A stretch of 64,000 bases of DNA from an uncultured Hyphomicrobiales bacterium (GTDB lineage Bacteria > Bacteroidota > Ignavibacteria > Kapaibacteriales > UBA2268). The translations under genes were made by a program, and so were the position numbers. Under the pieces are notes generated by a model, which saw only the letters and a list, made by a program, of their open reading frames with translations, had not been told where the DNA came from and did not search any database. Position 1 is the stretch's first letter, and every line of letters starts with the position of its first letter. Of the stretch, positions 1,137 through 60,985 are shown in pieces. The DNA lies in assembly GCA_964464375.1 (NCBI GenBank), contig CAYXFU010000005.1, positions 3,495 through 67,494 of the forward strand. Direction: 5' to 3'.

Positions 1137-1213
1137 AAACTAATTAAAATCATTTGTAATAATAATTCAACTCTATAGACTTATTTCATAAAAAATATTG
1201 TAGATATATTTGA

Positions 1214-4200: not shown

Positions 4201-4951
4201 TGACAATTTGGATGAGTAATTCTGCATACTGCAGGAGTGGTTCAACATATTCTCTCTGCATAATCATTTTGATTTCATCAAGGATTTCCTGATCGGATTT
4301 TGCATAGAAAACATCCAGATTCTTCTTGATTTCAATCTTATCGATAATAGCCGATACGATTGTATTGACTTTATCCTGGTTTAACATTCTGAGCATCCGC
4401 TTGGAATTATTCCTTAATTCGAAGTCCGAAGATGTCAGCCAGTCTTCCAATGTACTCTCAATTGTCTTGTTGGTTAGTCTGATCTTATCAGGTTCACTCA
4501 ACTCAGCGAAATTGAGTGGCACACCGGCTTCAATAGGATATTCTTTCAATAATGAAGAACAAAAGCTATGGATTGTCGATATTCTGGCATAGGTCAAACC
4601 TTCGCGAATTTTTCTAAGAAGGTTTATTTGCTTAAAATCCTTTTTTTGACCCTCATCAGATTTAATAAGATTCGTCAGATCTTCATCAAATGAGCGGACT
4701 ACCTTCGCAAGCATTTCTGAAGCAGCTTTGCGGGTGAATGTTATTGCAAGAATCCTTGTAGGGTCAATTCTGAATTCATTACCTTTGAAGCTGTCAATCG
4801 GCAAAGTCGCATACTGTTTCAGAATTTTTTTAAATCTTTCGACAAGTACGAAAGTTTTCCCGGAACCTGCATTAGCAGTAACGGAAAGATGCTTATCTGT
4901 TGACAATGCCGATATTTGTTCACTGGTTAAGTTCACCGGGTATCCTGACAT
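1214..4951 (-). CDS. UvrD/PcrA-family superfamily-1 helicase fused to a C-terminal RecB-like PD-(D/E)XK nuclease (AddA/RecB-like helicase-nuclease)
   Basis: The 1245-aa product has an N-terminal Walker A (ANAGSGKTFVL). The C-terminus carries nuclease motifs (GSIDLLIEN..IEIWDWKSN, QMRTYAYF = QxxxY). Confidence 0.85.
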   Translation of the reverse strand: MSGYPVNLTSEQISALSTDKHLSVTANAGSGKTFVLVERFKKILKQYATLPIDSFKGNEFRIDPTRILAITFTRKAASEMLAKVVRSFDEDLTNLIKSDEGQKKDFKQINLLRKIREGLTYARISTIHSFCSSLLKEYPIEAGVPLNFAELSEPDKIRLTNKTIESTLEDWLTSSDFELRNNSKRMLRMLNQDKVNTIVSAIIDKIEIKKNLDVFYAKSDQEILDEIKMIMQREYVEPLLQYAELLIQIVNRGVIDSLTKKFPDALVYAKKISHYLNTDVVEYSTISAILDAYQALKKFMLTDTGVRVEFRKCLDNADDIEYLNSLDGKELQKKIDIVKNYVDNFDKQVEQIGLSRLLLDFSKVVIHSIDEEKLLLNALDINDLQMYASKLLDNSDVVARIRSKVDFLMVDEFQDTNQLQYDIVKKLMPELEGKDGGKDLINLFIVGDVKQSIYGFRNADVRVFQQAGKDISDLNSKTSSNEAALANVESSIGNVNLTTTFRLSPVPASFVNKVCGKLMNSKNSDYDVDYIPLICSKDGETLEENNLNIIKDTRLGSISFLLSELPQKSNQKNSEEASDEAEEDTGFLEENLIAKYILKLVNDPDNDYEFKDITILSQTKNNFQKLATKFIEFNIPFLVHSGKGFYQSPEIIDILSFMKFIYNPDDDAALISVLRSRYFNMDDSSIYRIAKSEAEGSFWEKLNHLITESNYNLIVDSLTNIIATSTSMPVSKIIIMINQTCGWYGTINDSNAKYQILANMDKFIQIAREYENKGFKNLYDFVEEMNFISGNKILESEAAIITGENAVNIMTIHASKGLEFPVVILFNSNFSPNHNPSYYITPEYGIGYKIPVAIEELYKQDLDTPQFLINKRISQLAEKAEKKRLLYVALTRSKSKIVISSTYKYNEKKDVYTINGFIDDIISSLEIQFSEIIAKDTILISDELNVYNQSRIYPVKITYPIDILTNIDISGITSEVRIIKASDKIMLNKDIKSTQTNEMFSPTKLMTYESDSLSYSKKYIFGMPDINPIDYDKEFEIQSDMPITTGFTAGLAIHSVLQSISRWINKDGIINTESLKNEISRYTKADFDTPSSLSSRLMIECRKIAGTKLIKNNLKHILNGKPEFNLILPINGDILNGSIDLLIENEDSIEIWDWKSNIVNEKFTVEAHAKHYELQMRTYAYFVHKLYPDKKNIKARLLFTRLAIEDAEDNDWSHEFSWDKAELINIESELSQLIMGMRSHLYSWL

Positions 4952-15199: not shown

Positions 15200-16657
15200 A
15201 TGTCTGTTAGAGTTAGATTTGCTCCATCGCCAACCGGTTATCTCCATGTAGGAGGACTAAGAACGGCTCTGTACAATTATCTTTTTGCAAAAAAGTTTAA
15301 TGGAACTTTGATTCTAAGAATTGAAGATACCGATAGAAGCAGACTTGTTGAAAATGCTATGGACAACCTTATTGATTCATTGGAATGGGCCGGAATCAAT
15401 TTCGACGAAGGTCCGGTTAAAGATGGTGCACATGGTCCATACATACAATCAGAGAGACTCGAAATTTACAAGAAATATGCTGACTTATTAATTGAATCAG
15501 GTAAAGCATATTATGCTTTCGATACACCTGAAGAAATCGACAATATGCGTAAGAGACTTCAAGAAAGCAATGCCGATTCAAAATATGACAGAATGAATAT
15601 GAGCAATCAGCTTACTTTAGGTGAGGACAAAACAAAAGAATTTCTTAGCCAGGATAAGCAATTTGTGATTCGCTTGAAAATTCCAGATGAATTGATTGAA
15701 TTTAATGATATAATCCGTGGTAAAGTAGCTGTTCATGGAAAAGAAATTGATGACCAGGTCTTGCTCAAATCCGATGGATTTCCTACGTATCACCTGGCTA
15801 ATGTTGTTGATGATCATCTGATGGAAATTACACACGTAATCAGAGGCGAAGAATGGCTTCCATCAACGCCTAAACACGTTATTTTATATAACTGTTTTGG
15901 TTGGGAAATTCCACAATTTGCTCACCTGCCTCTATTGCTGAATAAGGATAAATCTAAATTGAGCAAGAGACAAGGAGATGTTGCAGTTGAAGACTACAGA
16001 GCCAAGGGCTATTTCAGGGATGCTTTTATAAACTTTATTGCTCTATTGGGTTGGAATCCATCAGCTGATAAAGAAATTTATACTATTGATGAATTGATTC
16101 AATCATTCAATCTTGAAAAAGTTAATAAGAGTGGAGCAGTATTTGATTTAGTTAAACTTGACTGGATGAATGCTCATTATCTCAGGAATATTGAATCGGT
16201 AGATATTCTTGCAGGTCAATTAAATGAAATTCTTATTAACAATAATATTGAAGCATCAAATTTTAGCCGGGAATATTTGGAAAAAGTTATGTTACTTTTT
16301 AGAGAAAGAGTTACATTTATTCATGAAATTCCATCTATAGCCTCTTATATGTTCAAAGATCCTGATCAATTTGATGAAGAATATAAATTAAAGTATTGGA
16401 AAGAAAATACCGGAGAGTTGTTAGCAGAACTTAAGACAGATTTGGTAAATTTGAATAATTTTGACCATTTAACAGTACACGATGAGGTTATGAAATTTGT
16501 TGAATCAAAAGGAATTAAACTTAAAGAGATTATTCATCCCATCCGATTGATTATTACAGGAAGATCTCAGGGTGCAGGTATGTTCGAAACAATGGAAGTA
16601 TTGGGTAAAGAAGTATGTTTGAAGAGATTTGAGTATTTTTTATCCAAGGTCAATTAA
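15200..16657 (+). CDS. gltX: glutamyl-tRNA synthetase
   Basis: Class I HIGH-region equivalent PSPTGYLHVGG, KLSKR (KMSKS), and overall GluRS length and order. Confidence 0.92.
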   Translation: MSVRVRFAPSPTGYLHVGGLRTALYNYLFAKKFNGTLILRIEDTDRSRLVENAMDNLIDSLEWAGINFDEGPVKDGAHGPYIQSERLEIYKKYADLLIESGKAYYAFDTPEEIDNMRKRLQESNADSKYDRMNMSNQLTLGEDKTKEFLSQDKQFVIRLKIPDELIEFNDIIRGKVAVHGKEIDDQVLLKSDGFPTYHLANVVDDHLMEITHVIRGEEWLPSTPKHVILYNCFGWEIPQFAHLPLLLNKDKSKLSKRQGDVAVEDYRAKGYFRDAFINFIALLGWNPSADKEIYTIDELIQSFNLEKVNKSGAVFDLVKLDWMNAHYLRNIESVDILAGQLNEILINNNIEASNFSREYLEKVMLLFRERVTFIHEIPSIASYMFKDPDQFDEEYKLKYWKENTGELLAELKTDLVNLNNFDHLTVHDEVMKFVESKGIKLKEIIHPIRLIITGRSQGAGMFETMEVLGKEVCLKRFEYFLSKVN

Positions 16658-30385: not shown

Positions 30386-31810
30386 ATGAAGTATATTCTT
30401 TTTCTTGTAATAGTAAGCATAGCAATTTCAACCAATAGTTTCGCTCAGAAACTACCCAAAATAAATCCGGCAGTTAAGCCAACGGTTGACAAAATAATCA
30501 AACCAGTGATTAAAGAAATCCAATCCTTAAAAGACAGTGTTTCAAAAAGAATCAAACCCTTAAGATCCCAAGCGGATACTTCTCTTTCGAGTGCTGTTAA
30601 ATCTCCTGAAAACACAAAAAAATTGAATTTGACAAATAAAAAATTAACTAAGTTTCCAGCAGAGATATTAAAATTGTCTGAGCTGGAAGTTCTGATTCTT
30701 TCAAGAAATAATATTACAACTTTTCCTTCCGAAATCAAAGACCTGAAGAAACTCAAAGTTCTGGATTTATCAGAAAACACTCTGGATAGAATTCCACCTG
30801 AAGTTTTTACGATTTTAAGTCTGACTGAACTTATTTTATCAGATAATAATATTTCAAATATTCCTGATGATATTTCTCATTTGATAAATCTTAAGAACAT
30901 TGTGCTGAAACGTAATAAAATAGAAACAATTACTGAGAAATTCTCGGATCTCGTTAACCTTCAGAATATATCATTGGAATTTAATAAATTATCTGCTTTA
31001 CCTGCATCAATCACAAAAATATCTGGTTTGCAGAAACTCAATCTTGCTTCCAACAGTATTCAACAAATACCAGCCAGCATTGTAAATTTAGTCAATCTTA
31101 GGACATTTGTGATTCAGAATAATAAATTAACCCAATTACCCAAAGAAATCGGGAAATTAAAAAAACTTATTGAATTTAGCCTAAATGAAAATCAAATTAC
31201 TATATTGCCAGATGAAATCTCTGAAATGGATGGTTTAAGAAAATTATCAATTCAGAAGAACAATCTTACTGCTATACCGAAAGCTATCTTTGGACTTAAA
31301 AATCTTGAAATTCTATATCTTCACGAAAATAAATTAACTGAAATACCCAAAGATATAGAACAAATGAAGAAATTAAAAGAATTGGGCTTGAGTGCTAATT
31401 CAATTTTAAAAATAAATGCTGATTTGAAATCAATCCTAACACTTCAAAAGTTAAATTTAAGTAAAAACAACTTAAATCAAATCCCTGAAGTAGTTTTTGG
31501 CTTAATTAATCTTACAGAATTAGATTTATCATTCAATCAGTTAACAAAAATTCAAGATAATATTTCAATGCTTAAAAATTTAACTGTATTGAAACTTGAT
31601 CAAAACCAAATAACCGAATTGCCAACATCTATAACACAATTAAATAAATTAAAAACTCTATCACTGACATCCAACAAACTTTCTATTCTTCCTTCTGGAT
31701 TAGAGGCATTAACTACTCTGAAATTGCTAAACATCAAGAATAATGCCTTTACTGACGAATATAAAAGCAAATTAAAAGGATTGTTTAAAGGTACAAGGCT
31801 AAATTTTTAA
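30386..31810 (+). CDS. secreted leucine-rich repeat (LRR) protein, ~17 tandem 23-residue LRR units
   Basis: Signal peptide (SIAISTNSFAQ), then repeats of LxxLxxLxLxxNxLxxLPxxIxx throughout. Confidence 0.8.
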   Translation: MKYILFLVIVSIAISTNSFAQKLPKINPAVKPTVDKIIKPVIKEIQSLKDSVSKRIKPLRSQADTSLSSAVKSPENTKKLNLTNKKLTKFPAEILKLSELEVLILSRNNITTFPSEIKDLKKLKVLDLSENTLDRIPPEVFTILSLTELILSDNNISNIPDDISHLINLKNIVLKRNKIETITEKFSDLVNLQNISLEFNKLSALPASITKISGLQKLNLASNSIQQIPASIVNLVNLRTFVIQNNKLTQLPKEIGKLKKLIEFSLNENQITILPDEISEMDGLRKLSIQKNNLTAIPKAIFGLKNLEILYLHENKLTEIPKDIEQMKKLKELGLSANSILKINADLKSILTLQKLNLSKNNLNQIPEVVFGLINLTELDLSFNQLTKIQDNISMLKNLTVLKLDQNQITELPTSITQLNKLKTLSLTSNKLSILPSGLEALTTLKLLNIKNNAFTDEYKSKLKGLFKGTRLNF

Positions 31811-34408: not shown

Positions 34409-34459
34409 TTGCTTATATTTGCTAAGAAACCTATTTACATATATTTAACAGGTGATGAC

Positions 34460-37015
34460 ATGAATAAAATGTACCGTTATTTCTTCATTTTTCTTGCTTT
34501 CACATTGCAGTTTGCCATTACTAATGCATTCAATCTCGATGCTCCTCAAAGACTGACAGCAACTACAGGTCAAGATAATCAGGGCTCTTATGTTGATTTA
34601 TCCTGGTATTTCCAGAGTAATAATGATCAACCATATGCCTTTTATATTTACCAAGCGACTAAACAAACCCAGGACAAAAAGGACTTCCAGGTTTTTGGTA
34701 AAGTTAAATTTGACCCAAACACAAATCAATTTACTTACAGACAATATCTACAGACCGGTACTTTTAGTTTCTATGTAACGGCAATTGGTATTGATGGGAA
34801 TAACTTAGTAGAGAGCAACGGTTCTAATATTGTTACAGTTCAGATTGCAAAAGATCCAAACAAACCATTTATACAAATTGTTTCACAACCAAATGTATAT
34901 TCCAAGATTGGTGATAAATATTCTTATCAAATAAAAGCTAAAACAAATCTTGATCCCTCATGCCCATTAGTATATAGGTTGCTCGATGGACCTAAAGATA
35001 TGCAAATAGATGAAACAAATGGTTTAATTACATGGGCTCCCTCAAGTAATGGTTCATTCCCGGTTGCTGTCCAGGTAGGAACAACATGCAAAATTGCTGT
35101 TGATTTTCCTGTTCAAAAATTCATGATTAACGTTGGTGATGTGAATAACGGACCCTATGTAAGATTCGAATCAAAACCTCTACCAACAATTCCTGTTGGT
35201 AAAATGTATGTTTATCAAATTGTTGCAAGCTCTAATGTAAAATGCCCTATTAAATTTGAGTTAATATCAAATACCCCCAATATTAAATTTGATAATGTAA
35301 AGGGTGAACTTTACATTTATTCAGATGTTCCAACAATGATAACCGGTGGCATTAAAGCATATCTCGAATGTGATCCAAAAGTAATGGCATACCAGCAGTT
35401 CGCTATCAAAATTGTTCAGGATCAGCCACAAGAAGATCTTTGTGCAGTTATCAAAGGTAATATTGTTCTCGAGGATGGAACTCTTCCAAGAGAAGGCAAA
35501 GTTATCGCTTGGAGACTTACCGAGAAATCTAATAAAATTCCAGCTTATCCTGGTTACATAAAAGAAGGAAAATTTGAAGTTAATGTTCCGACAGGTGCTT
35601 TCATTCTAGAGTTTGACAGTCCCGTGTTTATGCATGAATACTATCTGGATGCTAATTCAATTGATAAAGCACAGAAAATTGATGTAAAATGTAAAGATGT
35701 TGTTGAAATTGATGTTGCCGTTACAGCTCGTCCAGTTCCAAAAACAAACTCTGTAAGCGGTACAGTTACTTCCATATTGGACAACAGTCCTGTATTCGCA
35801 GTCGTTGAGTTCTATCCTGTTGATCCGAAAAATAATATTAATCAGAAGACTGGTATGGTATTCCAGACAAAAACTGATGCAAATGGAAATTACTCAATTG
35901 AACTGACAGACGATATGACTTATCGTGCTCATTGCAGACCAATGGCTAATATACCATATAAAGATCAATGGTACGATCAGGTAGACAATCCAAACCAGGC
36001 AGATTTGATCTATCCCGATCAACCATTAACCGGAATTGATTTTAAATTAAGTAAAGCAGATTTGATTAAAAACAGTTTTGCAGGCTCAGTTAAAGATGCT
36101 AATGGAGTTTCTGTAAGGTCACGTATTTTAGCTTTGCCTGTCAAAGCAAATCCTAGCAACAATACTAACGCAGGTCAATTTATAACAGAATCTAAGGATG
36201 ATGGTTCATTTATGTTCCAAAATCTTCCTTATGGAAATTATGTTTTACTTTCATTACCCGTTGACAGAAAATTCTTACCAGGATATTACAAATCATCTGA
36301 TTTTGCCACTTTAAAATGGCGTGAAGCAACGCAGATAACTGTTGGCGACAATATGCCGGCTATGATCTACGAAATCAAACACAAGCTGAGAACAGGCTTT
36401 AAAGGTTTGATCAGAATTGATGGAAATATCATCGCCAGCGGAATGGCAAAGAAAAATATAGATATTCCGCAATCAAACGGATCTCCTGTTGAAGATGCTT
36501 TGGTCTATATAATTGATGAGCAGGGTGAAGTCAGCGATTTCGCTTTGACTGATGCTGCAGGTTACTTCGCAATGTCTGAAGTATCTGAAGGTAATTGTAA
36601 ACTATTTGTTGATAAAGTTGGATTCAATACTTTCGAAAAATCATTAACAAATGATTATACCAAGAGCTTCTCATCAAATGTTGATGTAGTCTTAGAACTT
36701 GAAGTAGCCGGAGTTGAAGAAGAACAAGTTGTTTCAAATCTAACCATTTATCCTAATCCTACACAAAATGTAGCAAATATTATTATATCTGGGTATGTAT
36801 ATGCGTCAACTCAAGCAGTTGTAAGAGTAGTTGATGTTATGGGGAATATAATATTAAGTAAAGATGTAAATTTAGAATTTTTAAGTGCAGAAGTCCGTAT
36901 TATGACTTCCACCATGGTTTCATTAGATATTAGCTCATTAGCACACGGAATTTATATAATTGAGGTCATCTCTGGAAACACTAAGACACAAACAAAGCTG
37001 AATGTTATAAGATAA
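34460..37015 (+). CDS. large cell-surface protein with cadherin-like/Ig-like and CarboxypepD_reg-like repeats and a T9SS C-terminal sorting domain
   Basis: Signal peptide MNKMYRYFFIFLAFTLQFAITNA. Repeated putative Ig domain units (YSYQIKA...DGPKDMQIDETNGLITWAP; YVYQIVA...). C-terminal T9SS type-A CTD (NLTIYPNPTQNVANIII...GIYIIEVISGNTKTQTKLNVIR). Confidence 0.8.
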   Translation: MNKMYRYFFIFLAFTLQFAITNAFNLDAPQRLTATTGQDNQGSYVDLSWYFQSNNDQPYAFYIYQATKQTQDKKDFQVFGKVKFDPNTNQFTYRQYLQTGTFSFYVTAIGIDGNNLVESNGSNIVTVQIAKDPNKPFIQIVSQPNVYSKIGDKYSYQIKAKTNLDPSCPLVYRLLDGPKDMQIDETNGLITWAPSSNGSFPVAVQVGTTCKIAVDFPVQKFMINVGDVNNGPYVRFESKPLPTIPVGKMYVYQIVASSNVKCPIKFELISNTPNIKFDNVKGELYIYSDVPTMITGGIKAYLECDPKVMAYQQFAIKIVQDQPQEDLCAVIKGNIVLEDGTLPREGKVIAWRLTEKSNKIPAYPGYIKEGKFEVNVPTGAFILEFDSPVFMHEYYLDANSIDKAQKIDVKCKDVVEIDVAVTARPVPKTNSVSGTVTSILDNSPVFAVVEFYPVDPKNNINQKTGMVFQTKTDANGNYSIELTDDMTYRAHCRPMANIPYKDQWYDQVDNPNQADLIYPDQPLTGIDFKLSKADLIKNSFAGSVKDANGVSVRSRILALPVKANPSNNTNAGQFITESKDDGSFMFQNLPYGNYVLLSLPVDRKFLPGYYKSSDFATLKWREATQITVGDNMPAMIYEIKHKLRTGFKGLIRIDGNIIASGMAKKNIDIPQSNGSPVEDALVYIIDEQGEVSDFALTDAAGYFAMSEVSEGNCKLFVDKVGFNTFEKSLTNDYTKSFSSNVDVVLELEVAGVEEEQVVSNLTIYPNPTQNVANIIISGYVYASTQAVVRVVDVMGNIILSKDVNLEFLSAEVRIMTSTMVSLDISSLAHGIYIIEVISGNTKTQTKLNVIR

Positions 37016-50871: not shown

Positions 50872-51135
50872 ATGATTGAACAGTTAGTAGAAGTAGTGAA
50901 TAGAGCCGGCATCCATACCAGGCCTGCAGCTATGATCGTAAAACTTGCGGCGAAATTTAAATCAGATATATATCTAATACGGGATGGTTTTTCGATTAAT
51001 GCTAAGAGCATCATAGGTGTAATGACTTTAGCCGCCGAACAGGGAGCAAAGATAATTGTTAAAATTGATGGGCAGGATGAACAGATGGCAACTGATGAAT
51101 TAACTCAGCTCTTTGCTAGTGGTTTTGGTGAGTAA
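50872..51135 (+). CDS. ptsH: phosphocarrier protein HPr
   Basis: GIHTRPAA (His15) and NAKSIIGVM (Ser46) motifs; 87 aa. Confidence 0.85.
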   Translation: MIEQLVEVVNRAGIHTRPAAMIVKLAAKFKSDIYLIRDGFSINAKSIIGVMTLAAEQGAKIIVKIDGQDEQMATDELTQLFASGFGE

Positions 51136-51169
51136 TTTATTGTTTTAATTAAATTACAGGAAAAAATTA

Positions 51170-52921
51170 TTGAACCTGATTAATGGAAGTACAACTGCAC
51201 TTACAAAAAGAGATGATGAACAAGAACTACTTGTTAAAGGTATCCCCTCTTCACCCGGACTTGTTTTAGGGCGAGCTGTTGTTATTGCTCCACAACCAAT
51301 ATTCGTTATCTCGGAATTAATCACCCTTGATGAAATATCAGTGGAAATAGAAAGATTTAGAACTGCCACTAAAATCTTTTCAGATGAAATCAGATCATTA
51401 ATATCTAAATCTAAATCTGAAAATAGAAATATACTAAATCTCCTTGAAACAAATCTCTTCATTTTACAAGATAAATTTCTTATAGACTCAATAGAAAATT
51501 TGATTAGTGATGGATTATCGGCTGAAATGGCTTTGGTTGAAGAATTCGATACCCAAAAACAATTCTTGCTTAACTCCCAAGACTCTCTGATCAAAGAAAG
51601 ATCTATTGAATTTGATCAAATCAAGCATAGGTTGATTTCAATTCTTAGGAATCAAAACACAGCTCTCAAGGCCGGTAAAGGCAGTATAATTGTTTGTCAA
51701 AGCATAACCCCGGCTGAAGTCATTAAAATTCATGAAGTTGGTGTCGTTGGTATTATCACCGAAATTGGAGGCATATCTTCTCATAGTGCCATTCTTGCAA
51801 GATCCTATGACATAGCACAGGTAATTGGTGTCAAAGATATCACTTCACAGGTAAATAATGGTGATTTTCTTATCATTGATGGTAATACCGGTATTATTCA
51901 GATAAATCCATCTGAGGAATCATTAGTAGCTTTTACTATTAAAAAGAAGAAGGAGAAAGAACATAAAAAGTTACTTGGTAAGCTGATCAAGTTACCGGCT
52001 ACAACTTTAGACGGCAAGGAGATTATTCTTCGGGCGAACATAAATTTTCCTGAGGATATGGTGTCTATGCAGACTGTGGGTGCTTATGGTGCTGGATTAG
52101 TCCGAACAGAGCATCTTGTGATTCAAAGAGGAAAATTCCCGAGTCTCGAAGAACAACAAGAATGGTATGATGAAATTGCTCATCAATCCTACCCTCATCC
52201 AGTAACTCTTAGGATATTTGATATTGGCAGTGATAAAATTGCAGAAGGACTTCCTATTCATGAGAATAATCCTGCTTTGGGTTTGAGGGGCATTAGATTT
52301 CTTCTTCAAAGAATCGATATTTTGAAAACACAGATTAGTGCCATTTTGCGTGCATCCAAATTAAAAAATGTTAGAATTTTATTACCTATGCTCTCCTCAA
52401 TAGAAGAACTGGAGCAAACAATCCAAGTTATTGATGACTGTAAAGCCAATCTAAAAGAACTTAGCATTCCATTTGATGAAATGATTCAAATTGGAGTTAT
52501 GATAGAAACCCCGGGAGCCGCATTAATTGCCGAAGAACTCGCAACCAAATGTGACTTTTTTAGTATTGGAACTAACGATTTGACTCAATATACATTAGCC
52601 GCCGATAGAACCAATGAGTTGATTGCTCATCACTTTGATACTTTTCATCCAGCTGTTTTAAAATTGATTCTAATGGCGATTACGGCAGCAAAAAATCATA
52701 ATATTAAGGCTAGTATATGTGGTGAAATGGCTGGACATGCTGCTGCTACAAGTCTGTTAATCGGCATGGGAATTGATGAACTGAGTATTGTGCCTTCAAT
52801 TTTATTGGAAATCAAGAAGAGAATTAGAACCGTTACCGATTTAGAATCCATAGCATTTGCTAACTCTATTCTTTCATGTAATTCTGTAATCGATATTCAC
52901 AAAAAACTTGGTTTAATGTAA
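51170..52921 (+). CDS. ptsI: phosphoenolpyruvate-protein phosphotransferase (PTS Enzyme I)
   Basis: GGISSHSAILARS (phospho-His), GLVRTEHL, IETPGAAL, FFSIGTNDLTQY. Confidence 0.92.
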   Translation: MNLINGSTTALTKRDDEQELLVKGIPSSPGLVLGRAVVIAPQPIFVISELITLDEISVEIERFRTATKIFSDEIRSLISKSKSENRNILNLLETNLFILQDKFLIDSIENLISDGLSAEMALVEEFDTQKQFLLNSQDSLIKERSIEFDQIKHRLISILRNQNTALKAGKGSIIVCQSITPAEVIKIHEVGVVGIITEIGGISSHSAILARSYDIAQVIGVKDITSQVNNGDFLIIDGNTGIIQINPSEESLVAFTIKKKKEKEHKKLLGKLIKLPATTLDGKEIILRANINFPEDMVSMQTVGAYGAGLVRTEHLVIQRGKFPSLEEQQEWYDEIAHQSYPHPVTLRIFDIGSDKIAEGLPIHENNPALGLRGIRFLLQRIDILKTQISAILRASKLKNVRILLPMLSSIEELEQTIQVIDDCKANLKELSIPFDEMIQIGVMIETPGAALIAEELATKCDFFSIGTNDLTQYTLAADRTNELIAHHFDTFHPAVLKLILMAITAAKNHNIKASICGEMAGHAAATSLLIGMGIDELSIVPSILLEIKKRIRTVTDLESIAFANSILSCNSVIDIHKKLGLM

Positions 52922-52927
52922 AAAAAA

Positions 52928-52960
52928 ATCGTCAGAAACACTCTGACGATTTAATGATTT
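52928..52960. terminator. bidirectional terminator (ATCGTCAG-aaacact-CTGACGAT; T9 follows on the minus strand)
   Basis: 8-bp perfect stem. On the minus strand it is followed by nine T, giving a strong terminator for the gatE-gatD operon. The T-run is weaker on the plus strand after ptsI. Confidence 0.6.
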
Positions 52961-52976
52961 TTAATGCTACCACTTT

Positions 52977-54362
52977 TTACTTGCGATATTTCGAAATAAA
53001 TTCTTCCACTTCCGGTATTCCACCCTGAAATATTAGATAACCGTTGCTTGGCTCCCTATCTGTTATTTCGTTGGCTATTGGTGTTAACATAATTTCTTTT
53101 ACTTTTTCTAAATCTTGGGATTGTCCCAAAGCCCATCCTAGTTTCATGTAAGCAACCTCAGGTAACATATTCCCGGCTGGAACGACTCCGAGATCCATCA
53201 TATCACGACCAGTATCGTAAACATACATCTGCACATAGCCCCATAGTGTTTGAACAGTCATGTAAACTGCAATTCCTTTGTCCTGCGCACGTTTAAGGGC
53301 AGGATAAAGTGGCTTGTTCACATGTCCAAGACCGGTTCCAGCTATCACGATACCTTTATAGCCATTGTCGATCAATGAATCTATTATATCAGCCTTCATA
53401 TTGGGATAATAATATACAATTGCAACTCTATCATCGAAAGCTGTATTTATGATCACATTTCTATCATCACGGCGCTTTCTGTAATCGTTCCTCAGTGGAG
53501 TAATCTTTTGTCTGTCAACCATTGCAATCGGAATTTCACCAATAGTTCTGAAGGTTGATCTATATGATGAATGCATTTTTCTAACACGTGTACCCTGATG
53601 TAAGAGTCCGTAAAGGTCTGATGTCGGACCAAACATACAAACCATAACCTCAGCAATATCACTATCTGCAGCAGTTTTCACACTATGCATTAAATTTAAA
53701 GCCGCATCTGATGATGGTCTGTCACTGGAACGTTGTGAGCCAACCATAACAATAGGAACTGGTGAATTTTGTACCATGAATGATAGTATTGCTGACGTAT
53801 GATGCATTGTGTCGGTACCATGCCCAATTACTATCCCTTTAGCACCATTCTGAATCTCTCTACCGATTGCTTCTGCGGTTCCTCTCCATTGATCAGGTCC
53901 CATATTCTCACTAAAAACTCCATATAGTTTTTCAGTTTGAAGATTGCATATATCTGCAAGTTCTGGAACTGAACCATAGAGTTCTCCTGGAGAAAATGCA
54001 GGAATTACAGCACCAGTTCTATAGTCCAGACGACTTGCAATTGTGCCGCCTGTACCCAGAAGTTTAACATTGGGTTTCTTAGGATCATAAGGGAAAGCTT
54101 TTTCTGGAATTTTATAATGAGCTTCTTTTCTTCCATTAATTTGAATATCTTCTACTTTCTCTGCTGCTATACCAACGTTATAACCTGATCTTAGTTTGAT
54201 AACAATATGCTTATCGTCTCCATTCTCAGAACGTGGAAGAATGATTCCGATATGTTTTCCGGTTGCTGTTTTAATCTCAACGTCACTCCATACCAAAGCA
54301 TCAAAATTCTTCAATGTACTTAATGCCTGACCTCTATAACCTTTATATGATTCATCTGCCAT
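52977..54362 (-). CDS. gatD: Glu-tRNA(Gln) amidotransferase subunit D, archaeal type (GatD; asparaginase-like)
   Basis: LKLRSGYNVG, GTGGTIASRLDYRTGAV, HGTDTMHHTSAILSFM, QRSSDRPSSDAALN. These align closely with archaeal GatD. Confidence 0.88.
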   Translation of the reverse strand: MADESYKGYRGQALSTLKNFDALVWSDVEIKTATGKHIGIILPRSENGDDKHIVIKLRSGYNVGIAAEKVEDIQINGRKEAHYKIPEKAFPYDPKKPNVKLLGTGGTIASRLDYRTGAVIPAFSPGELYGSVPELADICNLQTEKLYGVFSENMGPDQWRGTAEAIGREIQNGAKGIVIGHGTDTMHHTSAILSFMVQNSPVPIVMVGSQRSSDRPSSDAALNLMHSVKTAADSDIAEVMVCMFGPTSDLYGLLHQGTRVRKMHSSYRSTFRTIGEIPIAMVDRQKITPLRNDYRKRRDDRNVIINTAFDDRVAIVYYYPNMKADIIDSLIDNGYKGIVIAGTGLGHVNKPLYPALKRAQDKGIAVYMTVQTLWGYVQMYVYDTGRDMMDLGVVPAGNMLPEVAYMKLGWALGQSQDLEKVKEIMLTPIANEITDREPSNGYLIFQGGIPEVEEFISKYRK

Positions 54363-54363
54363 C

Positions 54364-56286
54364 TTATGCCTCCATCTTGTAATTATTTGTTACATACTTT
54401 CTAATATGTTGTCCGCTGCATCTTCCAATAAGGTCTGCCATGATTAATCCAATTAAAAATTCTGGCTTTTTGTCATGATTATGAAATTTTTGAGCATTCA
54501 TATCTTTTAAGCATTTTTCAAATGATTGTTTGATATCTGCATCGGAAGCTGGTAATGTGATATTCCCATCAAATTTACCATCGTTTTTAATGATCATTTC
54601 CATGGAAAATAATATACCATCCTTTGTCAATGAACCATCAGACACTGATTTGAATAATAGTTCCAAATTTGAATTATTAAGTAAATCAATACTTAATTTT
54701 TTCTTTTTTAATCTTTTAGTGAACTGAATTAATGCATGAGCAACTAAAATAGGATTTAATTTTAAAGTGTTAACTGCATAGTCGAAAACTGTTGCAAATT
54801 TAGATATTGACAACGGTTCAGCGATATCGGGAGATATGTTTAAATCCAAGTACTCCTTCAATCTAATCCAATAGGGAGCTAGTATTTCTGACTTTAACCT
54901 GATTAAACGTTCCTTAGTTATCATTATAGGGGGTAAATCAGTATCAGGATACATTCTATCAGCACCTGGAAGGATACGTTCAAAGCCGTTTGTGCCATCA
55001 CGAAAAGCCTGACGGGTTTCAGATGGGATTCCGATTGTAGCTTCTTTTGCTCTAATAATTATTTCTTTGGAGGCAGTATCAGTATCGGTTTCATCGCCCC
55101 ATACTAATACTAAAGTGTCTTCTTCTTTTGCTGAAACACTTTTGCGTATCTTTTGCCCATCTGCCGATGAGATAGTATTTTCGGCACTATCAGAATGAAC
55201 CATATTAGGTGTATTTGACAAACATGCAATGACTCGTACTCTGTCAGAGACTTCCTTGCCAAAGAAAGTGTCAGTCTGAGTCTTCCAGCTTAGTAAACCT
55301 TTGAATCCTGTGAGAGTAACACATTTTACAAGTAATCCCTTTGAGATAGCATTGGCAATTGGTTCATATTGTGTTTTCTTTAATAATTTTGTTACATCAT
55401 CAGTTTTTGAGTGGAATGTATCCGTTGTTATTCCACGCTTACTGAGTTCTTCTCTTAATCTAAGAAGATTCCACTGACGCATCGCTTCGTTATATGTTAA
55501 GAGTGGAATAGATTTAATATGGGCTACCCCCTTAATTTCAATTCTAGTACCCCCTGTTACACTAACATTAACATCTTCTCTACCTGCACCAATTCCTGTT
55601 CTAGCCTTTCCAGTACTACGGGCAACCTTACGAATGATTTGATTCACATCCGCTACTTCCTGAGGAGTAAGCATTTCAGGTGCTGTTACTGTTTCAATCA
55701 AAGGCATTCCGAGTCTGTCTGTTTTGTAAACTCTTCTATGTCCAAAATCGCTAATTTCTCTGCAAGAATCTTCCTCGATAGACATTTGAATTATATTAAT
55801 TTCCCTGTCTTTATATGGAATTTTACCATTTACACTTACTATAGCTGTACGCTGAAAACCGGTAGGAATACTGCCGTCAAGATACTGCTTTCTGGCTATA
55901 TGCAATTCATCAACTATATTGCAGTCCATTAACTGTCCTACTTGAATAGCCACATCCAAAGCTTGGTCATTCATAATAAAAGGTGGGGTATCGTCCATTT
56001 CGTAAGTGCAAACAGTAGCTCTGTTTATCCTATAGACAATATCCTTTTTAGTTTTAAATTCCATCAAAGCAGTGCCATCGTACTCTCCAAGTTCTGAAAG
56101 AGTTGGTCTCATGTGCCTTAATATTTCAGCATGATATTCCTCACTATATTGACCGGCAGGACACCTGCAGAAAAGTTTACGGTCAGTGTAAAGTTGTTGA
56201 TGAACTTCCAAACCTGATTTGAAGCCTATTCTCGAGTAGTCTTCCTGTGTCATTTCTTCGAATGGCTTAAAAACAAAATCTTCCAT
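54364..56286 (-). CDS. gatE: Glu-tRNA(Gln) amidotransferase subunit E, archaeal type (GatE)
   Basis: GLEVHQQL..KLFCRCP, RPTLSELGEYD, TGFQRTAIVSVNG, DRLGMPLIETVTAPE. Collinear with archaeal GatE. Its stop lies 1 nt before the gatD start. Confidence 0.88.
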   Translation of the reverse strand: MEDFVFKPFEEMTQEDYSRIGFKSGLEVHQQLYTDRKLFCRCPAGQYSEEYHAEILRHMRPTLSELGEYDGTALMEFKTKKDIVYRINRATVCTYEMDDTPPFIMNDQALDVAIQVGQLMDCNIVDELHIARKQYLDGSIPTGFQRTAIVSVNGKIPYKDREINIIQMSIEEDSCREISDFGHRRVYKTDRLGMPLIETVTAPEMLTPQEVADVNQIIRKVARSTGKARTGIGAGREDVNVSVTGGTRIEIKGVAHIKSIPLLTYNEAMRQWNLLRLREELSKRGITTDTFHSKTDDVTKLLKKTQYEPIANAISKGLLVKCVTLTGFKGLLSWKTQTDTFFGKEVSDRVRVIACLSNTPNMVHSDSAENTISSADGQKIRKSVSAKEEDTLVLVWGDETDTDTASKEIIIRAKEATIGIPSETRQAFRDGTNGFERILPGADRMYPDTDLPPIMITKERLIRLKSEILAPYWIRLKEYLDLNISPDIAEPLSISKFATVFDYAVNTLKLNPILVAHALIQFTKRLKKKKLSIDLLNNSNLELLFKSVSDGSLTKDGILFSMEMIIKNDGKFDGNITLPASDADIKQSFEKCLKDMNAQKFHNHDKKPEFLIGLIMADLIGRCSGQHIRKYVTNNYKMEA

Positions 56287-56478
56287 AACTACCTTATCAA
56301 AGTATCTTTATAATTATTATAATTTTAACATTATACGAACTTCAAATTTACGAAAAATATTTAATTTTGTGGCTGTAAGGCACAATATTTATTAAGGAAA
56401 CTCACAGGAAAAAATATTTTTATAGTTGCAAGCGTTAATATCACCAAAAACTATCTATTAATAAATTAAAGGACAATA

Positions 56479-56952
56479 ATGAAAAAAATATTGCTGCTAC
56501 TCATCATTGCATCTTCGATGTTGATATCCAACAATGAAGCCAAAGCTCAAATTGAAGATACAAAACTTGCCAAAATGGATCTCAGTGAATACTTAGGTGC
56601 AAGGTTATATAAACTTTTCCAGACATTCGGAACTCCGGATGATATTGCATGTTCAAATGATGAACGAGGAGAACCAATTCTTGATTTTGGTAAATTTGCT
56701 TTCCAGATTGGAGCAAAAACTGTAAATATTATTTATTTCTGGGAGAATTATCCCGGTAAAGTGATGGGATTTAAGGTTGGTGATAGCCGTGCAGACTTAG
56801 AAAAGAAATATGGTAAACCCAATGTTGAAAAGGATGCCAAGGATGGTAGTCTTATTTGGATTTATAATTTTAAAGAAATTGATAGATATTTTGTTGTGTT
56901 TTTTGATGATGACGCAAAAATCAAAAAAATGCAACTAGAGCTGATGATTTAA
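56479..56952 (+). CDS. hypothetical secreted protein
   Basis: Signal peptide MKKILLLLIIASSMLISNNEAKA; 157 aa with no recognisable domain. Confidence 0.5.
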   Translation: MKKILLLLIIASSMLISNNEAKAQIEDTKLAKMDLSEYLGARLYKLFQTFGTPDDIACSNDERGEPILDFGKFAFQIGAKTVNIIYFWENYPGKVMGFKVGDSRADLEKKYGKPNVEKDAKDGSLIWIYNFKEIDRYFVVFFDDDAKIKKMQLELMI

Positions 56953-57261: not shown

Positions 57262-60126
57262 TCACTTTTCAAGTATTATACTCTTATACCTTTGGTATAA
57301 ATACGATACTGTGAGCAATATCAATCCTAAAGCGATGAATGAGATTATTCTGTACAAAGTTTCCAGGAATGATAAATCAAATACGAATACTTTAAGAATC
57401 GTTACACCAAACAGACCTATGGATAGTAGCCGTAGAAGCTTTATCCTTCGCCATATACCAATCATGAGCATAAATATAGAGTAAAAAATCCATATTCCCG
57501 ATAACGACAATTGTTGCATATTTCGGAATTTGCTTAATTCGCTGAAGATAAATTTGATATTATTATCATTGCTGGATTTATTGAGATTTTCAATTATCTT
57601 ATTGAAGTAATCGCTTGTTTCGGCACTTATCAGGATAACTATCATTAATATAAACATAATGAATAGAGTACCTGCGACCTTTTCCATCCAATTTGGATAA
57701 TCAATGTTTTTATTTGTAATGTTTAAAATTAATGCAGTAGAGATTATGACTATACTAAAAGCAAGGAACCTGTAATTCATAATTAAATTGAACTGATTGA
57801 TTGGATCAAAAGCAAATCCACCAAATACTGTTATTAATACACCAATAGCAATGCATCCTAAAGCTACATATATTGCAGGGTTTGTTTTTGTCTTGAAACC
57901 ATAATAAATCAAAGGTACAGAGTATATTACAAGAGAGAATGCATACGTTAAAGTACGATTAAAATAGATTGAATCTAGATTATATTTATGAGATAAATAT
58001 GCTAAATGTTCATGATAGACAGAAATTTCTGAACATATTGGAATGATTACAAAAAGAATGCATGTGGTAAATATAGCATTCGCAGCTTTTGAAAACCTTT
58101 GCGAATAATCCAAGCTCCTTTTGGTAATTACATAAATAATCGCAAGAGAAATAATAACAATCAGAAATGACAAAAAACTATAGTTCATGATAATTTGATA
58201 TGGTTCAGGCATTAGATATGTAGTACCTCCGATAAGAGTCACCACTACCCCAATACAAATGCTACCAAATGCAACATAGATTGCCGGTTCTGTTTTGGTT
58301 CTGAAACCATAATAAATGAGAGGAATGGCATAAATCAATAGCGAAAAGCCATAGGTCAGCTTTTGAGTAGATTCTATAAAGGAAGCATACTCCCAATTAG
58401 TAATGATTTGCAGATGTGTGTGATAATTAGTTATTTCATTAAAAATCAGATAAACCAGCGAAATACTCCAGAGATAGCTGTAAATTTCTGAGATATTCAA
58501 ATAATGTGTTTTATCCTGTTTCTTAAGCATGAAGCTACATAAAAAAGCCGCTACAGCTATTGAAAGAGAGGCAAACATCATTGGGTTAAGTATAATCCAA
58601 TAATTTCCAACTTTAGTATATTCCTGAGTATTAGAAATAATGAATTTGATAACAGCAAGTCCAAATGTTATCATTGTCAGTTTGTTCAGAACTTTTAGTT
58701 TTTTATTCAATCCGAAATACAAAAAGATCACTGCTTCACCGGCTAAGACTGCAACTGTTACATAATCTTTGAACTGTATAAAAGTAGCAATTACGAACAG
58801 AGCAGCGGATGAAATGAGTAATATATCTCTTCGTTGGGTATCTGAGGGATTCTTCAAGGATGATATCCGGAATAATCCGAAGTAAACAACTGCAATAATA
58901 AGTGTACACAGTCCCATCCAAGCATGATGATGTCCATCGACCACATAATTTAAATTAGAATAGAATATAACAAGGCTGATAACATTCGTGATTTTAAAAA
59001 TATCTGTATTCTTAATTTTACCTGAGTAAATAGCATAAAACTCAACTAAGACAAATAAAATCCAGAAAATGATAAGAAATATAGATGTAATCATTACATC
59101 CAATCTTGGATTATAATACTCACTGAACCATGCAAAATAAGTGAGATAAGTACCAACCAAAACCATCGGATAGATAAATTCCCATTCATTCTTTTTGATG
59201 AAAATGAGCAGAATACCAATATCAAGTAGAGAAACATAAGTAAAAAGTCCGATCTCATTTGCCTGACCGGTGCTGAGCATGAATGGAGTTAGAAAACCTC
59301 CAAGCCAGCCAAGAATCGCAACCGCCATTGAATTGTATTTGATTCCCAGCCAGAAAGTAAAAGCTGTAATTGCTGACATCATTATGAATGCAACAATCTG
59401 AGGGACCAAATGGTAAAAGTTAAAAGATGCAAATACTGATAGGAACAAAGTTGCTATACCGGCACCAATCAATCCTTGAGAGAATATTTTAAAATCCCGT
59501 TTATTAAATTGCCAGCCACCAATTATCAATGCAAAACCTGAAACAAAGCCAATTCCAACTCTTACCCATTCACTTATCCAGTTTTTATCGAAAGCATATT
59601 TGAGGAAAAAGCCGATACCGATTATCAATGCCAGAGAACCGATACGATTTAATAATTTGCCTCCAATCAACGATTCAAGTTCTTTGTTAGCAAACCAGTT
59701 TGTAGATGTTTTTCTTGGAGTTTCATTTATAAATGGAATACGTTCTTGCGGAATATCAACAGTGGGTACTTCCTGTTCTACTTTTATGTCAGGAATTTCA
59801 TCTTCAATCTCATTCTGTTGAATATATGTAAATTCTGAAACAGGCTCAACCATAGCGGGAATATTTATTTCACCGGGATCTACTGATTCTGTTATCTCAT
59901 CTGCTTGGATGACATGTTCTTGCTTCTCTGCTGATCTAGCTTCAGCATGCTGTTTAACAATTTCAGAATATGTATCGGTTTTAAAGAATTGTTGTTTCAG
60001 GAACCTGACATCATGGAAGAGCATCTTCAAATCATGTTCAACTTTACTAATTCTATTATGGTAAACCACAAGAACAATAATTGGTACAAGAAAGACAACT
60101 ATAACAATGAATATTACTCCGCCCAT
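57262..60126 (-). CDS. large polytopic membrane protein (DUF2339-like), >20 predicted TM helices
   Basis: 954 aa. N-terminal TM plus coiled region, acidic linker, then continuous hydrophobic helices with internal duplication (..IYYGFRTKTEPAIYVAFGSICIGV.. / ..IYYGFKTKTNPAIYVALGCIAIGV..). Confidence 0.7.
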   Translation of the reverse strand: MGGVIFIVIVVFLVPIIVLVVYHNRISKVEHDLKMLFHDVRFLKQQFFKTDTYSEIVKQHAEARSAEKQEHVIQADEITESVDPGEINIPAMVEPVSEFTYIQQNEIEDEIPDIKVEQEVPTVDIPQERIPFINETPRKTSTNWFANKELESLIGGKLLNRIGSLALIIGIGFFLKYAFDKNWISEWVRVGIGFVSGFALIIGGWQFNKRDFKIFSQGLIGAGIATLFLSVFASFNFYHLVPQIVAFIMMSAITAFTFWLGIKYNSMAVAILGWLGGFLTPFMLSTGQANEIGLFTYVSLLDIGILLIFIKKNEWEFIYPMVLVGTYLTYFAWFSEYYNPRLDVMITSIFLIIFWILFVLVEFYAIYSGKIKNTDIFKITNVISLVIFYSNLNYVVDGHHHAWMGLCTLIIAVVYFGLFRISSLKNPSDTQRRDILLISSAALFVIATFIQFKDYVTVAVLAGEAVIFLYFGLNKKLKVLNKLTMITFGLAVIKFIISNTQEYTKVGNYWIILNPMMFASLSIAVAAFLCSFMLKKQDKTHYLNISEIYSYLWSISLVYLIFNEITNYHTHLQIITNWEYASFIESTQKLTYGFSLLIYAIPLIYYGFRTKTEPAIYVAFGSICIGVVVTLIGGTTYLMPEPYQIIMNYSFLSFLIVIISLAIIYVITKRSLDYSQRFSKAANAIFTTCILFVIIPICSEISVYHEHLAYLSHKYNLDSIYFNRTLTYAFSLVIYSVPLIYYGFKTKTNPAIYVALGCIAIGVLITVFGGFAFDPINQFNLIMNYRFLAFSIVIISTALILNITNKNIDYPNWMEKVAGTLFIMFILMIVILISAETSDYFNKIIENLNKSSNDNNIKFIFSELSKFRNMQQLSLSGIWIFYSIFMLMIGIWRRIKLLRLLSIGLFGVTILKVFVFDLSFLETLYRIISFIALGLILLTVSYLYQRYKSIILEK

Positions 60127-60319
60127 AAATACTCTCCTTTGGCTTCCCGTAAATTTTTTTTATTAAATTACTGAAAAAAGGGGTAAAATTAAAAAATTAA
60201 CTAATCAATTGTTAGAATAATACTATTATTTTTTTAAAATCCGATAATTTTTGATAAATTTGAAAGATGCTAAGTAGCATTTTTGGTTGTATATTATTTG
60301 TCATTTATATAGATTTATC

Positions 60320-60985
60320 ATGAAGCTCATTTTTCTATTTAGTTCCATTTTTCTTGTGACTTTAAGCTTAACTACATCATCGAAAATTGCATCGTCACAT
60401 CATGACTTCAGCGGTCAATCTTGGGCGAACAACGAAATATGTATTGTTTGCCATACACCACATAATGCAAGCACAACGGTTACTGATGCTCCTCTCTGGA
60501 ACCATCAGGTTACTACAGCGACCTTTCAGGTTTATTCTAGTAATACACTAAATGCTACAATCGGTCAACCTATTGGTCCAACTAAATTATGTTTATCTTG
60601 TCATGATGGTACTGTTGCTTATGATAACTATGGAACTTCAACTAGTGGCTCTAGATTTATCTCAAGTACAAATGCAGGATACTTAGGAACTGATTTGAGA
60701 CACGAACATCCTGTTTCGTTTGAGTATAATACTGCATTAGCAGCATCAGATGGAGGACTTTACGACCCTTCAGCACAGTCTTCAGGTTTGGGTGGTACAA
60801 TTGCAAATGATTTACTTATGAATGGAAGATTAGAATGTACATCATGTCATGATGTGCACATTAAAAGAAATACTGCCGGCACTTGTACAGGTTGTCATAG
60901 TATTCATCCTATGAGAACAACATCTTTATCATTAAGAAAATCCAATACAGGGAGTGCATTGTGCCTAACATGTCATATAAAGTAA
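60320..60985 (+). CDS. small pentaheme c-type cytochrome (five CxxCH motifs), secreted or membrane-anchored
   Basis: N-terminal hydrophobic segment MKLIFLFSSIFLVTLSL. Heme-binding motifs CIVCH, CLSCH, CTSCH, CTGCH, CLTCH in ~200 aa. Confidence 0.8.
   Translation: MKLIFLFSSIFLVTLSLTTSSKIASSHHDFSGQSWANNEICIVCHTPHNASTTVTDAPLWNHQVTTATFQVYSSNTLNATIGQPIGPTKLCLSCHDGTVAYDNYGTSTSGSRFISSTNAGYLGTDLRHEHPVSFEYNTALAASDGGLYDPSAQSSGLGGTIANDLLMNGRLECTSCHDVHIKRNTAGTCTGCHSIHPMRTTSLSLRKSNTGSALCLTCHIK

Follow-up and report, generated by a model that had tools for sequence, protein, structure and literature searches.

An archaeal-type gatE-gatD operon in an Ignavibacteria-type bacterial genome belongs to a bacterial clade of the GatDE family

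The window analysed here, a 64,000-nucleotide stretch of contig CAYXFU010000005.1 from an uncultured bacterium, carries on its minus strand two adjacent genes, gatE and gatD, for the subunits of GatDE, the Glu-tRNA(Gln) amidotransferase that reviews up to 2022 (including PMC9499178) describe as restricted to Archaea, a premise on which evolutionary scenarios have been built. Taken as a whole, the evidence makes it probable that the two genes form a functional archaeal-type operon, that they belong to a monophyletic bacterial clade derived from a single old transfer from a Heimdallarchaeota-related archaeon, and that their product works beside GlnRS. An earlier note on this DNA had recognized the pair, citing motifs that are indeed present in both proteins, and had regarded it as an archaeal-type module acquired horizontally by this bacterium. 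The module is archaeal in type and its archaeal origin is likely, but an acquisition by this bacterium itself is not supported, given host-like base composition at third codon positions (GC3), host-like codon usage, closest homologues that are bacterial and the large bacterial clade to which the genes belong.

The product of gatE (54364..56286, minus strand, 640 aa) is the tRNA-dependent kinase/transamidase subunit and consists of a cradle domain, an AspRS-like (GAD) insertion, a helical domain and a YqeY-like tail, whereas that of gatD (52977..54362, minus strand, 461 aa) is the asparaginase-type glutaminase subunit, in which a GatD_N domain precedes the asparaginase N and C domains. Both proteins exceed the cut-offs of their NCBIfam equivalog models: GatE scores 527.2 bits with NF003107 (cut-off 456) and 453.2 bits with TIGR00134 (cut-off 319.55), and GatD scores 519.5 bits with NF003217 (cut-off 310) and 514.8 bits with TIGR02153 (cut-off 324). 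Pfam finds GatD_N (PF18195, 50.5 bits) followed by PF00710 and PF17763 in GatD. In GatE, the match to GatB_N, a model of 277 positions, extends over residues 24-460 and contains an insert of about 160 aa, which matches the GAD model at 21 bits, slightly below the cut-off of 23.4, while covering positions 1-92 of its 95. The tail is recognized as GatB_Yqey (PF02637, 33.1 bits against a threshold of 27), and both solved GatE proteins are covered up to their C-terminus in the profile alignment. The best PDB matches of both proteins are the archaeal GatDE complexes 1zq1 and 2d6f, which align end to end, without a break through the GatE insertion region, and with E-values of 5.9e-120 and 1.4e-117 for GatD and of 8.6e-95 and 3.7e-85 for GatE, respectively.

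The residues on which catalysis depends are retained as well. In Methanothermobacter thermautotrophicus GatE, the Mg2+ ligands H15, E157 and E184 are needed for the kinase and transamidase activities (PMC2330236); they correspond to H29, E171 and E198 of the window protein, positions that vary neither in the bacterial nor in the archaeal set. In GatD, T104 and T107, T183-D184 and K262, which comprise the Thr nucleophile and the Thr-Lys-Asp triad, are invariant among 65 bacterial GatD sequences together with 1zq1 and 2d6f, whereas 31 other positions are invariant in bacteria but unlike both solved archaeal enzymes. Compared with archaeal GatDE (2D6F from M. thermautotrophicus and 1ZQ1 from Pyrococcus abyssi), the window pair thus has the same domain architecture in both subunits and keeps all Mg2+ ligands and asparaginase-type catalytic residues, as well as the short basic loop, the AspRS-like insertion and the YqeY-like tail of GatE. 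It differs in its bacterial host, in its membership of a separate bacterial clade (200/200 bootstraps), in the replacement of the GxxAxG motif of the tail, in the co-directional, translationally coupled arrangement of gatE followed by gatD, and in the coexistence with GlnRS in some of the bacterial hosts; GatD is only 46-49% identical to the solved enzymes and GatE, over the 382 columns that can be aligned with GatB as well, 29-31%. GatB of the bacterial GatCAB, which shares the bacterial domain of its hosts, resembles the window GatE in its homologous cradle domain, YqeY tail and kinase/transamidase chemistry, and some bacteria have GatCAB together with GlnRS, too. The window GatE, in contrast, has neither the 3-10 turn insertion nor the KxGKxK motif of GatB, possesses a GAD insertion that GatB lacks, and is partnered by the asparaginase-type GatD rather than by the amidase GatA with GatC. 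Collectively, every biochemical hallmark of GatDE that can be judged from sequence is present except the tail motif.

The two genes are organized as a coupled operon, as the earlier note had described and as the coordinates of the open reading frames (ORFs) bear out. At the junction, which reads TAA-g-ATG, the stop and start codons are only 1 nt apart, implying translational coupling, and gatD has its own ribosome-binding site, GGAGG (54369..54373, minus strand), which is contained in the 3' end of gatE and precedes the ATG of gatD by 6 nt. The operon is closed by an intrinsic terminator (52926..52952, minus strand) with an 11-bp stem followed by nine T residues (-13.7 kcal/mol, z = -4.6), which is as strong as previously claimed, is bidirectional and is common to the convergent ptsI gene. 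A candidate sigma-70-like promoter (56316..56345, minus strand), in which TTGAAG and TATAAT are separated by 18 nt, precedes the ATG of gatE by about 30 nt and agrees with the consensus at 10 of 12 positions; it is a consensus match only, since promoter-type matches are fewer in the candidate region than in its shuffles. With this promoter-like site, the 1-nt junction with its own GGAGG and the shared terminator, both genes would be carried on one transcript. Relative to a sister strain, gatD differs by 58 synonymous and no non-synonymous codon changes and gatE by 67 synonymous and 10 non-synonymous ones (sister locus L084). Both genes are under strong purifying selection and show no sign of decay.

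Homologue searches place the pair in a broad bacterial clade. When 5.8 billion sequences were searched, the 120 best homologues of the window GatE had 61-98% identity to it, and all those with a named source come from Ignavibacteria, Kapabacteria, Chlorobi or other bacteria of the Fibrobacteres-Chlorobi-Bacteroidetes (FCB) group. Among 1.84 billion representatives clustered at 50% identity, about 50 score 380-650 bits, with 40-77% identity over the matched stretches, after which identity falls to 31-37%. A scan of one genome per GTDB species with the peptides YD[GP]TALME and [DEN]RMYPDTD matched at least 599 stretches, 597 of which were confirmed; since these peptides occur in 32 of 32 representatives of the bacterial clade and in none of 76 archaeal ones, the scan matches are of the bacterial type. 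The best 80 of these at least 597 matches, on which the locus analyses below are based (about 16 kb sampled per genome, 1.26 Mb in total), are all bacterial metagenome-assembled genomes (MAGs) by title and come from several phyla. GatDE is archaeal in type, as the earlier note supposed when it called the enzyme the archaeal solution for Gln-tRNA(Gln) formation, but it is not confined to Archaea.

Identity to the window GatE is 56-73% under the titles Ignavibacteria, Kapaibacterium and Melioribacteraceae, 75% for an incomplete match under the title Bacteroidota, 56-65% for Aminicenantes, 59% for Calditrichota, 57% for Terriglobales, 56% for Myxococcota, 54-55% for Neomarinimicrobiota and 51-56% for Phycisphaerae and other Planctomycetota. 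Of the 80 loci, 71 also contain gatD, which lies downstream of gatE, in most cases no more than about 180 nt away; in 6 loci the two genes seem to be 338-3375 nt apart, in part because alignments are truncated or split. In the 71 loci with both genes, conservation across phyla is much stronger for GatD, with an identity to the window protein of 70-87% (median 81%), than for GatE, with 51-75%. Clustering of the ORFs of 81 loci returned gatE, gatD and overlapping shadow ORFs, and no other neighbour conserved across phyla. In MAGs of the 'MFD' series, gatE of L061 (10001-11879) and gatD of L049 (11764-13300) are split into two ORFs, which we suspect to be assembly frameshifts rather than pseudogenes. 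A GatE with the full bacterial signature motifs is also encoded in L085 (CP070751.1, 3717581-3739518), a 5.16-Mb closed record titled 'Thermoplasmata archaeon', a label that is doubtful in view of the size of the record and of the nearby accession CP070718.1, which is the chromosome of a Phycisphaerales MAG. Automated annotation has already given bacterial GatE and GatD proteins in MAGs these names.

The affinity of the clade was addressed with unrooted neighbour-joining trees of GatE (613-618 aligned columns, 200 bootstraps). The bacterial clade is separated from all other sequences in 200/200 bootstraps; those outside it bear names such as Heimdallarchaeota, Thorarchaeota, Thermoprotei and Parvarchaeota and include both solved archaeal GatE proteins. 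A Heimdall/Asgard-type group is likewise recovered in 200/200, and the two groups are joined in 185/200, with one sequence named Thorarchaeota and several unnamed ones as the next neighbours outward. The Heimdall-type group comprises about 30 clusters, 13 of which bear the NCBI names Heimdallarchaeota, Asgard group or Thorarchaeota and one of which is titled Bathyarchaeia. Three motifs are common to the bacterial clade and the Heimdall group: RKQYLDGSIPxGFQRT, in place of the RKxVIDGSNTTGFQRT of most other archaea; RMYPDTD, which is RMYPETD and RMYLETD in the solved archaeal enzymes, other archaea having E at a frequency of 0.94; and YDxxALME, which is mostly lacking in the other archaea examined. 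The nearest archaeal relative is thus a Heimdallarchaeota/Asgard-type GatE (TET29438.1; L086), at an identity of about 40%. Unlike the bacterial gatED arrangement, its gatD and gatE are divergent and lie in an archaeal context, with the genes for ribosomal protein aS21 and HMG-CoA reductase nearby.

The phylogeny thus bears out the assignment of GatE to an archaeal-type family, with the bacterial branch as sister to Heimdallarchaeota-type GatE. The bacterial GatDE clade most likely goes back to one ancient transfer, with a Heimdallarchaeota-related archaeon as donor, after which the genes spread among several bacterial phyla; the high GatD identity between loci with different phylum titles fits such later spread. 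The earlier note had named a long-established bacterial clade with GlnRS present and gatDE pseudogenised as an outcome that would tell against its proposal; the clade is indeed long established and at least three relatives have GlnRS, but neither gene has become a pseudogene.

GatDE is known as an alpha2-beta2 assembly that recognizes the A1-U72 pair and the D-loop and whose substrate is Glu-tRNA(Gln) and not Asp-tRNA(Asn). The course of the reaction can be deduced from the solved archaeal homologues: GatE would bind Glu-tRNA(Gln) and phosphorylate its gamma-carboxyl group at the Mg2+ site, GatD would hydrolyse Gln or Asn by means of the Thr nucleophile and the Thr-Lys-Asp triad, and the released ammonia would pass through a tunnel to GatE, where the intermediate would be amidated to Gln-tRNA(Gln). 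A candidate supplier of Glu-tRNA(Gln) is the bacterial-type GluRS encoded in the window at 15200..16657 on the plus strand (TIGR00464, 546.6 bits against a cut-off of 290), a gene that the earlier note had placed correctly.

The setting in which the enzyme would act is indicated by relatives of the window. GlnRS is encoded within 10 kb of gatED in 3 of the 80 loci, namely L043, L049 and L054, with TIGR00440 scores of 716-743 bits (cut-off 426), whereas only about 0.4 such co-locations would be expected by chance in this sample, by our estimate. In L054 the gene (656-2497, minus strand) is adjacent to and divergent from gatE (2643-4625, plus strand), in L049 (13297-14979, minus strand) it is convergent and abuts the end of gatD, and in L043 (70-1995, minus strand) it lies 8 kb from gatED. 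These GlnRS proteins belong to a subfamily like that of Deinococcus radiodurans but are devoid of its YqeY extension. Their position beside gatED indicates that GatDE is not simply replacing a missing GlnRS. This is a departure from the archaeal situation, as reviews state that archaea encode no GlnRS (PMC9499178).

A gene of the glutamine synthetase family is also found next to or near gatE in four loci. It lies immediately upstream of gatE in L062 (23-727, cut by the contig end) and L069 (194-1513), both with Planctomycetota/Phycisphaerae titles, about 4 kb from gatE in L003 (4767-6080), and between gatD and gatE in L085 (8239-9753); the type I GlnA cut-off is passed in L069 and L003, and the L085 gene falls below it. 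The recurrent neighbours are thus glutamine genes (glnS and glnA), not asnS or aspS, which supports a role centred on tRNA(Gln) even where GlnRS is also present. Our best estimate is that GatDE in this organism is an active Glu-tRNA(Gln) amidotransferase and that, given the GlnRS genes beside gatED in several relatives, it probably serves as a second or corrective route beside GlnRS. The identity and intactness of the two genes, the purifying selection on them and the structure and distribution of their clade are shown by the data, whereas the substrate, the partner GluRS, the physiological role and the direction of transfer are inferred.

Several observations weigh against this interpretation of origin and function. 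First, the taxon labels are the titles given to MAGs by their submitters, some of which are clearly unreliable. Uncultured Hyphomicrobiales, Eubacteriales and Cytophagia are doubtful titles of 'binchicken'/TPA MAGs on L005, L009, L014, L016, L044 and others, of which the GatE proteins are 52-64% identical to the window protein, and L044 shares the gene order ptsI-HPr-tsaC-glgP; several phyla are nevertheless each named by multiple independent submitters. Second, the direction of transfer is deduced from the nesting of the bacterial clade among Asgard sequences in an unrooted neighbour-joining tree, and rooting with GatB fragments derived from PDB entries (382 columns) did not place the root, bacterial monophyly being recovered in 68/100 and archaeal monophyly in 14/100 bootstraps. 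Third, the only GluRS of the window carries Arg at the position of R358 of Thermus thermophilus GluRS, as does the discriminating T. thermophilus enzyme itself. We take this Arg to favour discrimination against tRNA(Gln) without being decisive, so that it would neither prove nor exclude mischarging of tRNA(Gln), and the identity of this GluRS as the partner of GatDE is to be read as tentative. Fourth, the absence of GxxAxG from all 40 bacterial-clade GatE sequences suggests that their tRNA specificity may differ. Finally, no tRNA(Gln) gene was found in the window, which has tRNA-Met only, or in the 1.26 Mb of the 80 related loci. A tRNA-Glu(CUC) in L078 (9760-9834, 165 nt upstream of gatE), to which ARAGORN assigned a U1-A72 pair, was discarded as an artefact, because Infernal gives G1-C72.

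A competing idea, implicit in the earlier note, is that GatDE is the sole route, in which GlnRS and GatCAB would be missing, GluRS would be non-discriminating and all Gln-tRNA(Gln) would be made by GatDE. Neither glnS nor gatCAB is present in the 64-kb window, and the very strong purifying selection is compatible with an essential gene. The window, however, amounts to about 2% of a genome, so that absence from it means little, and its GluRS has the Arg typical of discriminating enzymes. Moreover, besides the GlnRS genes that adjoin gatED in relatives, more than 120 clusters are at least 79% identical to these GlnRS proteins, some of them named Ignavibacteriae or Bacteroidota. We therefore consider a sole route possible but on balance rather unlikely.

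A changed or widened specificity would have GatDE adapted to bacterial tRNAs, with their U1-A72 pair, and acting on Asp-tRNA(Asn), with or without Glu-tRNA(Gln), in replacement of GatCAB. The GxxAxGx tail motif has been described as typical of GatE, GatB having a Lys-rich motif in its place (PMC2811023), and GxxAxG is implicated in rejecting Asp-tRNA(Asn). In 40 of 40 bacterial-clade sequences it is replaced by the basic/aromatic P-[DE]-[AK]-[RK]-x-R-[YWF], whereas Heimdall-type GatE keeps the archaeal form, G-Q-R-A-L-G. The motif is variable in archaea too: the strict pattern G..A.G.{2,4}G..M, found in 0 of 40 bacterial-clade sequences, occurs in 13 of 78 archaeal ones, in which the individual columns hold G in 32, A in 45 and G or S in 42 of the 78, as compared to P, R/K and R in the bacterial clade. 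The tail motif characterizes a lineage and is not required for catalysis. The presence of GlnRS in three relatives could also speak for a changed specificity, inasmuch as this is the setting in which bacterial GatCAB typically serves asparagine (PMC4206432).

The remaining features of GatE are harder to reconcile with such a change. Y135 and P141 of the cradle motif match GatB, but as both residues are also found in Heimdall archaeal GatE, they mark ancestry and had to be rejected as a bacterial adaptation. In bacterial GatB, a 3-10 turn allows the U1-A72 pair to be read; the loop of the window GatE that faces the first base pair is of the short, basic GatE type and lacks this turn (STGKARTGIGAG in the window protein, ATKKVKRGLGTI in the archaeal one), that of GatB being two residues longer. 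The insertion domain of GatE, which modelling predicts to clash with a non-discriminating AspRS (PMC2330236), is kept, and the recurrence of glnS and glnA rather than asnS or aspS near gatED points in the same direction. A changed specificity is thus distinctly unlikely on present evidence, although neither it nor a sole route is mutually exclusive with an active enzyme.

With regard to origin, vertical descent of bacterial GatDE has to be weighed against the transfer favoured above. It would accord with the hypothesis, recounted in the review PMC9499178, that GatDE was present in LUCA, life's last universal common ancestor; the GatB-rooted tree is compatible with it, and the mean distance within the bacterial clade (0.96) approaches that among archaea (1.09). 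On the other hand, the bacterial clade groups with one particular archaeal lineage, the Heimdall type, by bootstrap support as well as by shared motifs, its distribution across unrelated phyla is patchy, and a GatD identity of 70-87% between phylum titles seems high for inheritance since the phyla diverged. Vertical descent is accordingly judged quite improbable.

A recent, lineage-specific acquisition from an archaeon, or the mis-assembly of an archaeal fragment into a bacterial contig, could be suspected from the description of the family as archaea-only and from the GC content of gatD, which is 0.39 as compared to a window mean of 0.35. The surroundings are clearly bacterial, as previously noted: the flanks encode HPr, PtsI, TsaC, Ffh, FtsY, RecG, a TonB-dependent receptor, a PorE/OmpA-like protein and the bacterial-type GluRS, and an AddA-like helicase and a sigma-54 activator are encoded in the window as well. 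A comparison of composition with the flanks, which the earlier note had proposed as a check, revealed no foreign signature. With GC3 values of 0.268 (gatD) and 0.278 (gatE), the two genes match the window mean of 0.280 +/- 0.030, the codon usage of both genes is among the closest to the pooled usage of the window, and across relatives the GC content of gatE tracks that of its flanks from 0.33 to 0.71. In JGI, NCBI, ENA and Logan assemblies, 11 metagenome contigs encode the identical GatD protein and keep the gene order gatE-gatD-ptsI-HPr, so that one neighbourhood recurs on contigs obtained independently from several samples. All of the closest homologues are bacterial, whereas identity to the archaeal anchors is only 29-32% when the 382 GatB-alignable columns are compared and 31-40% by phmmer. 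There is no sign of recent transfer or contamination at gatED, and the genes have long been resident in an Ignavibacteria-type lineage; recent acquisition or mis-assembly is therefore highly improbable and effectively refuted. Practically negligible, and likewise refuted, is a mis-annotation of an ordinary L-asparaginase together with a GatB/YqeY-type protein: GatD does pass the type I asparaginase subfamily model TIGR00519 (390.8 bits against 260.5), as expected for a GatD, and GatE matches GatB models weakly, but the GatD and GatE equivalogs score far higher, no GatB equivalog model was passed by GatE (the best, NF004012, gave 134.4 bits of the 338 needed), the two genes are coupled and co-conserved, the GAD insertion is present, and a stand-alone type I L-asparaginase is ruled out by the GatD_N domain and by gatE directly upstream of gatD, an arrangement also seen in most of the 71 relatives with both genes.

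Some other genes of the window deserve mention. HPr and Enzyme I (ptsI) of the phosphotransferase system (PTS) are encoded at 50872-52921, and no sugar-specific Enzyme II component is found among the annotated ORFs of the window; this may be a regulatory, incomplete PTS. Three ORFs have no NCBIfam match, namely those for a 954-aa polytopic membrane protein whose pattern resembles an internal duplication (57262-60126, minus strand), for an 868-aa protein (34409-37015, plus strand) and for a 157-aa protein with a hydrophobic, signal-peptide-like N-terminus (56479-56952, plus strand). A leucine-rich-repeat protein resembling the repeats of XopAC/XopL-type effectors is encoded at 30386-31810 (plus strand), and a small protein in which the CXXCH (multihaem) motif is doubled at 60287-60985 (plus strand).

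The locus is a newly noted member of a known family, and the enzyme itself is ordinary. No description of a bacterial GatDE clade was found in the literature searched, which leaves room for one elsewhere; GatDE is not mentioned in the genome papers of Ignavibacterium album and Melioribacter roseus or in a paper on signatures of Chlorobia and Ignavibacteria. The restriction of GatDE to Archaea, in hosts free of GlnRS, which concerns distribution and not biochemistry, does not extend to these genes, which have bacterial flanks and, in L043, L049 and L054, GlnRS on the same contig. The premise of an archaea-only GatDE is thereby weakened by a well-supported bacterial clade. Specialists would find it of interest for how widely it occurs in bacteria, for its affinity to Heimdall-type archaeal GatE and for the GlnRS that coexists with it, and for annotation it follows that a gatDE pair in a bacterial bin is no evidence of archaeal contamination. 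The clade also offers a natural experiment on how an enzyme tuned to archaeal tRNA(Gln), with its A1-U72 pair, would operate on bacterial tRNAs and on why an indirect pathway would be kept beside GlnRS. A more far-reaching proposal, which is tentative and unlikely as it stands, is that a Heimdall-derived GatDE with a tail re-tooled for bacterial tRNAs acts beside GlnRS in many bacterial phyla, either as a replacement for GatCAB, possibly with dual Gln/Asn function, or as a corrector of Glu-tRNA(Gln). If this were true, GatDE would no longer be an archaeal signature and would represent a second, so far unrecognised bacterial solution for amide aminoacyl-tRNA synthesis.

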